This document shows positions 33,179-39,498 of a DNA stretch of 64,000 nt, in pieces (the first letter of the stretch is position 1; each line of letters starts with the position of its first letter). Below the pieces are notes generated by a model that was not told the origin of the DNA, searched no databases, and saw only the letters and a program-made list of their open reading frames with translations. Position numbers and translations under genes: made by a program. The stretch is from Escherichia phage 215Ecol030PP. The stretch lies in the sequence record PP328843.1; one strand, 5' to 3'.

Positions 33179-33681
33179 TTAAAAGTATTTTTTAAAACTC
33201 ATCATAACTTTATCATCAACATCATTATCAATCTGTGCAACAAGGTAAGATGACAATTCTACTTCTTGTGGCGCAGATTGAACATTATCAGAATTAAGAT
33301 ATTCACGAATCCAAGGATATGGATGTTTAACCGGAGCATCGGTAATTGGGCATGGAAGACCACACTGCTTCATACGAGATACAGTTAAGTAATCAATAAA
33401 GCTCCACATGCTATTTGTATTTAATCCAGGAACATCTCCATCTTTAAATAAATGAACTGCCCAATCTTTTTCTTGGCGGTTAACTTCCATGAAAATATCA
33501 ACTGCTTCTTGTTCACACTCTTGAGCAATTTTAACCCATTGATCGCCATCAGTACCAGATTGAAGTTGACGAATAATATATTGGGTGCCTTTAAGGTGAA
33601 GCTGTTCATCGCGTGCAATGAACTTCATAATCTTGGCATTACCTTCCATGATTTCCATATTCTTATGGAAGTTAAAGGTAC
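33179..33681 (-). CDS. nrdB: Ribonucleotide reductase small subunit NrdB, exon 2
   Basis: Encodes (C)TFNFHKNMEIMEGNAKIMKFIARDEQLHL... through the C-terminus; class Ia R2 homology; splice position inferred, uncertain by a few nt. Confidence 0.75.
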
Positions 33682-34272
33682 CGTATGTTCGATTGAGCTC
33701 GCTAATTCTCAACCCGTTCTCTTATGAACTGCTGCATGTTACCATGCAGTCCAGACTATATCACAATCCCGGAGGGATTCTCCCCATTTCGAGTCGCTTG
33801 ACCCTACGTCCGAAGACTAGTCGTTGAACCTTGTTTTGCAATTGTCGCCGTGCCATCGTTTATATGTTGATGGTGATAAATCTTTCTTATCACAATATGG
33901 ACAATTCAATTGAATTCTATTTGGATTTAATTTACATCTGTCATTATGTTTTAGATAAAATCCAGGACCTTTACCAATGTGACCGCAGAAATCACATGTG
34001 ATTTCTTTTTGTGCAGGATGGGTCCCGTTCTTAACCATTTCTAATGTTTTGCTGATGTTCTTTTCTTATGGTCTTCCATCAGAATCTTTAGGTATAGGTC
34101 CGTTAGCATCTATCCAAATTTTTCTATAGTTCAATTGTGCATCCTCTTAAAAGTATAATCATATTATACTAATTAAAGGTGCAAGCAAAACCTTGGCTGC
34201 TAGTTTTCCATAAAGGACTTTCCAGCAATTAAAGGAGTTTTCGATAAACGTTACCGTTTAAAGGCGCATTTT
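33682..34272 (-). mobile_element. Group I self-splicing intron in nrdB (about 591 nt) carrying a short remnant homing-endonuclease-like ORF
   Basis: The nrdB reading frame is interrupted by about 0.6 kb between codons ...FYVSFA and CTFNFH...; exon 1 ends in U and the intron ends in G at the inferred junctions; T4 nrdB is known to carry a group I intron at this location. Confidence 0.7.
33817..34038 (-). CDS. Intron-encoded Cys-rich zinc-finger-like ORF (likely truncated I-TevIII-type homing endonuclease remnant)
   Basis: 73 aa with CxxCxH...C and CxxC...H..C patterns; too short for an intact HNH endonuclease. Confidence 0.5.
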   Translation of the reverse strand: MVKNGTHPAQKEITCDFCGHIGKGPGFYLKHNDRCKLNPNRIQLNCPYCDKKDLSPSTYKRWHGDNCKTRFND

Positions 34273-34948
34273 ACGCAAAAGATACATAAAAACGAATAGC
34301 TTCTAAGGCATTAATAACGTGCAAACAGAGGTAAAGAGATTTCATTAAAGCACGTTTAGCTTCGGCTTCTTGTTTAATAGCTCGGTTTAAACGAAAGACG
34401 GCATCAGGAGATTCTTTAGCTAGTTCTACAAATTCTTTAGCATTTTCCCATTCACGGGTTTTAATCAGAACATCATCATAATAACGTCCAATTGATTCAG
34501 CACGTTTCATAATAGCTTCATCTAATACAATCTCATCAAATACCTTCGATGGATCAGTATAAAGATTTCGCATGATATGAGTATATGAACGACTGTGAAT
34601 AGTTTCACTAAAAGTCCATGTAGCAACCCATGTATCAAGACTTGGGTCTGAAATTAATGACATAAGTACAGCAGACGGTGCACGGCCCTGAATGCTATCC
34701 AAAAGTGATTGATACTTCAGATTATTAGTAAAAATATCTTGCTGATATTGAGGAAGCTTATTAAACTGTGCAGCATCCATCATTAAGTTAACTTCTTCGG
34801 GACGCCAGAAAAAACTGATCTGCCGCTCAATGAGTTCTTCAAATACTCGATGTCGTTGAATATCATATCGAGCTAAACCTAATCCAGAACCAAAGAACAT
34901 CGGTTCATTCAAAACATCAACAGGGGATGTATTAAAAACTGTACTCAT
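34273..34948 (-). CDS. nrdB: Ribonucleotide reductase small subunit NrdB, exon 1
   Basis: 225 codons MSTVFNTSPVDVL...ALEAIRFYVSFA; class Ia R2 homology. Confidence 0.8.
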
Positions 34949-34999
34949 AAATTTTCCTCTTAGTTAATAGTTAGTGACTCGTCCATGAGTCATATTATA

Positions 35000-37822: not shown

Positions 37823-38134
37823 TTACACCGCCATTTTTCCTTTCAAGACACCATGGGACTGATAATCTTTGAGAACGAAATCTTTAGGCCTGAGTTTAAG
37901 AATGTATTCCAATTGTTCTTTAGTAGAAAGATAGCGGAATTTATAAGGCAATCCGCCTATTACCAGTTCACAAAGCTCTTTAGGTTCACGACGCAAAATT
38001 TCTTTACATTGTTCCACGTGATTCATATAGATATGAGTATTACCACCAGAAAATATCAAATCTCCTGGAATAAGATTACACATCTTAGCTACAATATGAA
38101 CTAACGCAGCATATGATGCAATGTTGAATGGAAG
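37823..38134 (-). CDS. td: Thymidylate synthase, exon 2
   Basis: Encodes LPFNIASYAALVHIVAKMCNLIPGDLIFSGGNTHIYMNH...KGKMAV, the TS C-terminal half. Confidence 0.88.
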   Translation of the reverse strand, partial: LPFNIASYAALVHIVAKMCNLIPGDLIFSGGNTHIYMNHVEQCKEILRREPKELCELVIGGLPYKFRYLSTKEQLEYILKLRPKDFVLKDYQSHGVLKGKMAV

Positions 38135-38396
38135 CATTATGTTCAGATAAGGTCGTTAATCTTATCCCGGAATTATATCCAGCTGCATGTCACCATGCAG
38201 AGCAGACTATATCTCCAACTTGTTAAAGCAAGTTGTCTATCGTTTCGAGTCACTTGACCCTACTCCCTAAAGGGATAGTCGTTAGGCATTTAGGTAGAAC
38301 CAAAGTCCTACAATTTAGCACGGGATTGTCTACTAGAGAGGTTCCCCGTTTAGATAGATTACAAGTATAAGTCACCTTATACTCAGGCCTCAATTA
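38135..38396 (-). mobile_element. Group I self-splicing intron in td, ORF-less (262 nt)
   Basis: The intron begins UAAUUGAGGCCUGAGUAUAAGGUGACUUAUAC... and ends ...CUGAACAUAAUG, which I recognise as the T4 td intron core; no I-TevI ORF is present. Confidence 0.8.
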
Positions 38397-39086
38397 ACCC
38401 AAGAAAACATCTACTGAGCGTTGATACCACTGCAAATCCAAATAGCCATTACGCACATTAAACTGATAGAACATATGACAAGGCGGTAATGCCATATATT
38501 TAAGTTCAGCTGGATTCCATGCAGAAACAATTTGACGCCTATCATTTGGCAATTTTTTAATACGATCAATAACTTCTACAATTTGGTCTACACCGCCAAA
38601 ATCACGCCATTGTTTTCCATAAATTGGACCAAGTTCACCGCTATGGTATCCTAAATCTTTTGCTTGATTTTCGTAATTTTCATCCCAGACTGTTTTGCCT
38701 TGAATTAATGAATCATGCTGAATTTGGTCTACACCGCCAAAATCACGCCATTGTTTTCCATAAATTGGACCAAGTTCACCGCTATGGTATCCTAAATCTT
38801 TTGCTTGATTTTCGTAATTTTCATCCCAGACTGTTTTGCCTTGAATTAATGAATCATGCTGAATTAATCGTAAATCATTTACGTTAGTACTTCCTGATAA
38901 GAACCAAAGTAGCTCAGCAATGCAAGCTTTCCAAGCGAGCTTCTTAGTTGTTACCGCAGGAAAACCTTTAGTTAAATCCCAGCGTAATTTAGTACCGAAC
39001 AAAGCAATTGTTCCTGTGCCTGTTCGGTCATCGGTTTCATAGCCATTTTCAAAAATGTCTTTAATTAAATCTTGGTATTGTTTCAT
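38397..39086 (-). CDS. td: Thymidylate synthase, exon 1 (contains an in-frame 47-codon tandem duplication)
   Basis: MKQYQDLIKDIFENGYETDDRTGTGT... with catalytic ALPPCHMF; the segment QHDSLIQ...GGVDQI occurs twice in a row. Confidence 0.88.
38580..38861. repeat. Perfect direct tandem duplication, 2 x 141 bp, inside td exon 1
   Basis: Positions 38580-38720 and 38721-38861 are identical by eye; junction microhomology ATT. Confidence 0.9.
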
Positions 39087-39130: not shown

Positions 39131-39478
39131 TCAATACGGTTTAGCATCAAATTTTCTTTCGATTTCAGGAGTGAAATATAATTCTTTACCGCGTTTGGAA
39201 AAGCGACCAATAATATGATAATTATTCTCATCAAACGTAATATTACCAATATCCATAGCTTTCAACCAAATATCGATATTTCTATCCAGCTTTATGTCAA
39301 AATTCCAATACGGAGAACTATTACCGAAAATACTGCAAGCAGATTCAGTGAAACAACTGCTATAAATCTTGTCTTTAGGAACTACTAATTGATAGACACC
39401 TTTAATAAACTGAGGACCCTGCCACTTTGGCTGTTTCGCGTCTTCTTCTAATAGAATAGGGTAATAATTAAAGTTCAT
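39131..39478 (-). CDS. Hypothetical 115-aa protein inserted between frd and td
   Basis: ORF MNFNYYPILLEED... from ATG 39478 (the ORF track start at 39490 is a GTG); no recognisable motifs. Confidence 0.55.
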   Translation of the reverse strand: MNFNYYPILLEEDAKQPKWQGPQFIKGVYQLVVPKDKIYSSCFTESACSIFGNSSPYWNFDIKLDRNIDIWLKAMDIGNITFDENNYHIIGRFSKRGKELYFTPEIERKFDAKPY

Positions 39479-39498
39479 ATTTTCCGCCACGCGTTATT

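Follow-up and report, generated by a model that had tools for sequence, protein, structure and literature searches.

A natural td group I intron without its I-TevI endonuclease gene in a T4-like Escherichia phage

Introduction

Is an insert of only 262 nt in a phage thymidylate synthase gene still the td intron, and if so, was its endonuclease gene lost or never acquired? This question is raised by the td locus of Escherichia phage 215Ecol030PP. The td intron of phage T4 is a textbook mobile group I intron. [quoted passage not shown] A sequence-only reading of the present locus, which gave T4 an intron of roughly 1 kb with this ORF, was right in this respect. In 2004, Sandegren and Sjoberg reportedly described several T-even introns in which the endonuclease gene had been deleted. 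By standard theory, homing endonuclease genes pass through cycles of gain, degeneration and loss (PMC5009752), and in a 2010 review each of the three T-even introns was still credited with an endonuclease gene of its own (PMC2993671).

Here, we analyzed the window, the whole 64-kb stretch of DNA taken from the ~168-kb genome. The window belongs to Tequatrovirus, and the nearest deposited genome differs from it by ~3.5% (best match ~96.5% identity over 20 kb).

Results

The td gene lies on the minus strand and is split by 262 nt at 38135-38396, as determined from the sequence and the ORF list. The interval given in the sequence-only reading was exact; the strand had been left unstated. Exon 1 (38397-39086, minus strand) was identified by the ORF list, a Pfam Thymidylat_synt match (3e-70), alignment with T4 thymidylate synthase (PDB 1TIS) and TRF. 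Its 3' end is ...GTTTTCTTGGGT, or in a longer read ...TTCTTGGGT, with the final U at 38397. The intron (minus strand) starts with TAATTGAGGCC at 38396 and ends in ...AACATAATG, the terminal G (omega-G) being at 38135; the U at the end of exon 1 and the G at the end of the intron had both been noticed earlier. Exon 2 (37823-38134, minus strand) starts with CTTCCATTC and comprises 103 codons and a stop, as supported by the ORF list and the 1TIS alignment. The intron opens with an in-frame UAA stop. The ORF at 38394-39086 (minus strand) encodes the N-terminal part of thymidylate synthase, ending ...VDVFLG, and the ORF at 37823-38137 (minus strand) encodes MLPFNIASY...KGKMAV. The AUG of the latter consists of the final three intron bases (38135-38137), and gene callers lengthen the exon 2 ORF by 3 nt, to 104 aa.

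The spliced exons, with one copy of a duplication in exon 1 removed, encode 286 aa that align to residues 1-286 of T4 thymidylate synthase (1TIS) without a gap. The exon junction in the spliced product, VFLG/LPFN, is likewise ungapped, and the intron boundaries are therefore exact. The same alignment places the insertion point after the GGU of Gly183, as in T4 td. Exon 1 contains the sequence CAACG at -27 to -23 from the splice site, which is the cleavage motif of I-TevI (PMC5009752). Exon 1 is 690 nt long, compared with 549 nt in T4, because it contains a 141-bp in-frame tandem duplication.

The sequence-only reading had proposed a covariance-model search and secondary-structure folding as checks on the group I assignment, and both supported it. 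Rfam RF00028 (Intron_gpI) matched 38183-38406 on the minus strand over the full model (1-253), scoring 65.5 bits (E = 2e-14) where gathering requires 50. When all Rfam families were scanned, this was the sole match above gathering in the 64-kb window. A td-type structure with P2, P3, P4, P5, P6, P6a, the P7 pseudoknot, P7.1, P7.2, P8, P9, P9.1 and P9.2 was written onto the 262 nt, and folding gave a complete td-type core, P1-P9.2, with P7.1 and P7.2. All pairs of the model (69/69) were canonical, including those of the P3/P7 pseudoknot and the core helices P3-P8. The unconstrained minimum free energy (MFE) fold, at -74.5 kcal/mol, recovered each of the 64 nested pairs of the model (64/64), and its z-score against dinucleotide shuffles was -3.4.

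Pairing was also maintained among natural variants. Across 10 natural td introns, 99.8% of alignment cells were paired, a figure inflated by the derivation of the structure from the sequence of the window itself. Independent of that derivation were the compensatory changes: both sides had changed in four pairs among the 10 variants. Two of these pairs belong to P9.2, with double changes in phage SEA1, and P6a and P8 contribute one each. In slid controls, with 3' partners moved by 1-3 columns, no both-sided changes were found and paired cells dropped to 28-42%.

The individual elements could be located on the minus strand. The internal guide sequence GCCUGA (intron nt 9-14) was read directly at 38383-38388. 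P1 is formed by the exon 1 bases UUGGGU and intron G9-A14, with a U.G wobble (U-1.G9) at the 5' splice site. In phages TuIa and VEc20, guide bases 13-14 are AG instead of GA and every P1 position is still paired; an A at exon position -4 of TuIa, in place of G, substitutes an A-U pair for G.U. The P6a hairpin GUAGGAC-UUUG-GUUCUAC (nt 86-103) is at 38294-38311, with 7/7 pairs canonical, and was defined by alignment with RB3, T4, TuIa and VEc20. The P7 pseudoknot strands (nt 117-121 and 188-192; 38205-38280) are canonically paired, and between them lie the helices P7.1 and P7.2 (nt 122-150), the 3' half of P3 (nt 156-161) and P8 (nt 162-181). Here, as throughout the core helices P3-P8, the pairs are invariant or compensated over the 10 natural variants. 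Both P7.1 (nt 122-133, 4 bp) and P7.2 (nt 137-150, 5 bp) appear in the unconstrained MFE fold, and their presence assigns the intron to subgroup IA, like that of T4 td. The peripheral 3' helices P9 (GUGA loop), P9.1 and P9.2 occupy 38146-38200 and rest on pair checks, P9.1 and P9.2 lying outside the Rfam model.

The earlier claim that the ends of the insert match the T4 td core proved well founded. At the 5' end, 93 nt agree with nt 1-93 of the T4 td intron without exception (93/93); at the 3' end, 166 of 169 nt agree with T4 nt 849-1017, giving 259/262 identical core positions. The three differences fall on unpaired positions or improve pairing, as in A232-U250, which replaces G.U. Missing from the window are T4 intron nt 94-848; the sequence-only reading had left these endpoints to an alignment with T4, and those on the 5' side were taken by eye and from the RB3 alignment, as MAFFT misplaced the 5' 93 nt. 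The missing cassette measures 755 nt in T4 and 754 nt in RB3. I-TevI is annotated at T4 intron nt 133-870, and the missing part comprises the 39 nt upstream of the ORF and 716 of its 738 nt. Those 39 nt hold the promoter/operator and the RBS hairpin (PMC2988022).

The junction in the window, between 38304 and 38303 (intron nt 93/94), reads ...GUAGGACU followed directly by UUGGUUCUAC.... The sole remainder of the ORF is its last 22 nt, T TGG TTC TAC (A>C)TA AAT GCC TAA, at 38282-38303 (minus strand) in the T4 alignment. They double as the 3' strands of P6a and P6 and as J6/7; the I-TevI ORF has been described as overlapping the intron core by 20 nt (PMC3073962). P6a here forms a hairpin of 7 bp capped by UUUG, so that L6a measures 4 nt, compared with about 760 nt in T4. 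The absence of the I-TevI ORF and the presence of a minimal ribozyme, as first read from the sequence, are thus borne out, with 22 ORF nt left and the core P1-P9.2 complete.

No ORF of consequence was found inside the intron in the ORF list, and tblastn found no I-TevI homologue in the 64-kb window (best E 0.32). The neighbors of td in the window are nrdA.2 (DUF5496), nrdA.1 (DUF4326) and the phrog_1928 ORF, and none is an endonuclease gene. The intron has neither an endonuclease in a peripheral loop, as a homing intron does, nor a nearby free-standing endonuclease in the 64-kb window, as a trans-mobilized intron does. The claim that it cannot home by an endonuclease of its own agrees with these results.

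A collection of 50,697 phage records contained at least 38 with a td intron whose ORF is absent or much reduced. The same flush junction, GGACU/UUGG, occurs in the 262-263-nt introns of vB_vPM_PD112, vB_EcoM_CE1 and BYEP01 (MH837626, ON229909, OR757453), which are 97-98.9% identical to that of the window, with 3-8 substitutions. An ORF-less td intron is therefore not unusual, the same junction being already present in three deposited phage genomes. The window intron has G6 and A174, like RB3, whereas PD112 and CE1 have T6 and G174; it also has C104, where PD112 and CE1 have A.

Other alleles retain different parts of the cassette. In the HP3 type (about 320 nt; seen in HP3 and MLP2), the beginning of the upstream region and the final ~50 ORF nt are still present. 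Introns of the G28 type (about 445 nt; seen in G28 and F1) have both ORF ends, and the 315-nt intron of Klebsiella phage EI has the upstream region together with the initial 14 ORF nt. Deletions in HP3, G28 and EI end in short direct repeats of 5-9 nt (TTTAA, CATTTTAAA and GGAATT, respectively), the signature of slippage or illegitimate recombination. At the flush 262-nt junction, by comparison, the microhomology is at most 1 nt, measured against T4 GGACUU. Two further forms have another short P6a: GUUC-UUUU-GAAC in the 254-nt N2 type (N2, CJY920, HMD-9) and GUUC-GAAA-GAAC in the 250-nt intron of SEA1.

Annotation of these loci is uneven. The deposited records of PD112, CE1, BYEP01, HP3, N2, SEA1 and others contain no intron feature, and td is listed as two genes. 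Gene callers name the 104-aa exon 2 ORF "thymidylate synthase" or "hypothetical protein". In Klebsiella phage EI, exon 1 is annotated "with intron of plasmid pMTL007C-E2" and exon 2 is unannotated.

In phage N2 (ON645936), the ORF-less 254-nt td intron is accompanied by a free-standing I-TevI paralogue of 243 aa with 46% identity. It is located just downstream of td, on the opposite strand, at the place held by nrdA.1 in other phages. On this comparison, the N2 arrangement resembles collaborative or trans homing.

The exact td-intron junction had no copies in IMG/VR or JGI metagenome contigs. A loose gapped pattern for short-P6a td introns gave more than 120 matches in IMG/VR, mostly by chance. 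After filtering with core motifs and Rfam, three unrelated IA introns remained in IMG/VR (L063, L077 and L127), none of them in a T4-like td. These ORF-less introns on viral contigs (L077 2246-2485, L063 4922-5147 and L127 5230-5837) scored 58-75 bits in Rfam and share with td the core motifs AAUCUAUCUAAACGGGGAA, GUGCUAAAU-hairpin-UAAAUGCCUAACGACUA and GAUAUAGUCUG. L127 carries two IA introns in tandem.

The duplication in exon 1 (38580-38865) was perfect, with 2.0 copies of 141 bp at 100% identity in TRF. It is in frame, has a 4-nt microhomology (AATT) at its borders and duplicates Td residues 76-122, among them the conserved GPIYGKQWR segment; the spliced Td product with the duplication would have 333 aa instead of 286 aa. 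Its junction was spanned in one piece by no record of the phage collection and had no match in IMG/VR. Recent slippage may have produced the duplication, or the assembly may be at fault. If real, it may impair or inactivate Td; with Td inactivated, splicing would currently serve the phage no purpose.

A second group I intron is located in nrdB, at about 33713-34270 (minus strand), between the nrdB parts 34271-34948 and 33179-33712. Its RF00028 score of 35.7 bits (E 3e-7) is below gathering because a 73-aa ORF sits in a loop. This ORF (33817-34038; MVKNGTHPAQKEITCDFCGH...) looks like a C-terminal stump of I-TevIII, as in the defunct nrdB intron of T4. The gap between nrdA and nrdB is only 51 nt (34949-34999). 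It contains no mobE, the free-standing HNH endonuclease gene located between nrdA and nrdB in T4, and mobE is absent from the 64-kb window as well. Because the td ORF is absent and the nrdB ORF truncated, both introns visible in the window are without a working endonuclease gene.

Between frd and td, at 39131-39490 (minus strand), there is a 119-aa ORF that belongs to phrog_1928 and has no Pfam match. In T4, by contrast, frd and td overlap directly; a comparable additional gene, RB3_232, is present in RB3. Homing could become less efficient where optional genes flank td, as Sandegren and Sjoberg are said to have proposed in 2004.

Discussion

Our analysis indicates, with a probability of about 0.9, that the 262-nt insert is the T4 td group I intron at its canonical site after Gly183, in a naturally occurring allele without the endonuclease gene. 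The most fitting reading places it at the stage of the homing cycle at which the endonuclease has been lost. The introns of T4, RB3 and TuIa share with it the gene, the site, the U.G pair of P1, the terminal G, P7.1/P7.2 and P9.1/P9.2. The T4 intron also carries the late promoter/operator of I-TevI, the RBS hairpin and the ORF; the window intron is without these and is not self-mobile.

The reaction expected from the family can be followed on the sequence. The pre-mRNA would fold into P1-P9.2, an external guanosine would attack at the U.G wobble of P1, and the freed 3'-OH of exon 1 would attack after the terminal G262. Ligation of ...GGU to CUU... would restore the td reading frame, while translation of unspliced RNA would be halted at the UAA with which the intron begins. 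Engineered td introns from which the ORF was deleted have been shown to splice well, both in vitro and in vivo (PMC1920258, PMC8565351). Together with the conservation of the core, this precedent makes it very likely that the natural minimal form splices.

No endonuclease would be made from this allele, and autonomous homing would cease. Three factors may account for its persistence. First, td would stay intact solely upon exact excision of the intron. Second, the I-TevI binding site extends across the insertion site, so that the intron divides it and should shield td from the I-TevI of co-infecting phages; by the published biology of I-TevI, precise loss of the intron would expose td to the enzyme. 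Third, the allele could spread passively by ordinary homologous recombination, a mode of movement suggested by the mosaic sequence of the intron.

The sequence-only reading offered a decayed or a primordial state as alternatives. The evidence leans to decay. We regard loss of the endonuclease gene as the probable origin of the 262-nt allele. The 5' 93 nt are identical to those of RB3, G28 and T4, and the 3' 169 nt equal those of TuIa and VEc20, which are ORF-bearing, except for C104. By this comparison, the intron is a mosaic of two present-day ORF-bearing lineages, which implies very recent common ancestry with ORF-bearing alleles. ORF loss is, to judge from the different I-TevI remnants kept by the HP3, G28 and EI types, demonstrably an ongoing process in this population. 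The SNPs A129, C195 and A232, which the window intron shares with TuIa-type ORF-bearing alleles, SEA1 and EI, may simply be ancestral, and they do not polarize loss versus the ancestral state.

The alternative holds that the 262-nt form never contained an endonuclease gene and that L6a (U93/U94) stood empty until the I-TevI cassette was inserted there. We consider this unlikely, although it accounts for several observations. The flush junction leaves nothing over from the ORF and shows a microhomology of at most 1 nt, in contrast to the 5-9-nt direct repeats of the three other classes, and the 7-bp stem of P6a, closed by a loop of 4 nt, is perfect. Other short P6a hairpins occur in the ORF-less td introns of N2 (GUUC-UUUU-GAAC) and SEA1 (GUUC-GAAA-GAAC), and the unrelated IMG/VR IA introns have the same GCUAAAU-hairpin-UAAAUGCC layout; a P6a without an ORF therefore looks ancestral for the subfamily. 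C104 was seen in ORF-less alleles only, and such an ancestor is predicted by the "core creep" idea (PMC3073962). However, the two halves of the intron are identical or nearly so to two different ORF-bearing lineages of today, so that any split would be very recent, and independent ORF deletions are demonstrably frequent. Furthermore, the I-TevI frame crosses the junction with no stop in the insert, which is unexpected for a single-step insertion. The tail of the N2 paralogue (...DCWESYLYC) resembles that of I-TevI (...DKWNWFYINA) in length and aromatic pattern, a weak hint that the C-terminal tail is a genuine part of the protein instead of a product of read-through. If the never-invaded form were nevertheless real, it would give a before-and-after view of an endonuclease gene colonizing a ribozyme and extending its frame into P6a/P6. 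The probability left over from gene loss and the ancestral form goes to complex histories, such as recombination between an ORF-bearing and a short-P6a allele.

It is also conceivable, but improbable, that the ribozyme no longer splices and that td is a pseudogene in this phage. The gene is dispensable on thyA+ hosts, and the duplication that re-inserts residues 76-122 with GPIYGKQWR may wreck the enzyme. However, all helices are intact and 259/262 core positions are as in T4, with differences that are unpaired or improve pairing. The duplication, being perfect, is very recent and has no bearing on the ribozyme itself.

An artefact, either by assembly collapse of the ORF or by a laboratory deletion construct such as td-delta-1-3, is least probable of all: td introns with the ORF deleted are in common laboratory use (PMC1920258, PMC8565351), one Klebsiella phage record names a plasmid intron, and the same td gene holds an odd perfect duplication, but the junction has no repeat able to collapse an assembly, it is identical in three phages isolated and sequenced independently, the window is ~3.5% apart from every deposited genome, and td-delta-1-3 retains a 5' part of at least 131 nt (PMC1920258), against 93 nt here.

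The endonuclease-less allele can be compared with two known systems. In the laboratory versions td-delta-1-3, td-delta-P6-2 and those with a theophylline aptamer in P6, the P6 loop and ORF were removed and the core and splicing were kept (PMC1920258, PMC8565351). These deletions are engineered and have other endpoints, whereas the window intron is a natural allele in a wild phage genome. The T4 nrdB intron with its truncated I-TevIII is a T-even group I intron stranded by endonuclease-gene deletion (PMC2790892). It differs in keeping an ORF stump, whereas the td intron of the window keeps only core bases of the ORF, and in being mobilized in trans by the neighboring mobE, whereas no endonuclease gene is adjacent here.

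The window intron reveals no new mechanism; it is a clean natural case of endonuclease loss in the best-studied mobile intron. The finding is chiefly relevant to annotation, as td is called as a pair of "thymidylate synthase" genes and the deposited relatives have the intron unannotated. The allelic series, with its partial deletions and alternative P6a hairpins, is usable for testing the gain and loss of endonuclease genes and the "core creep" idea.
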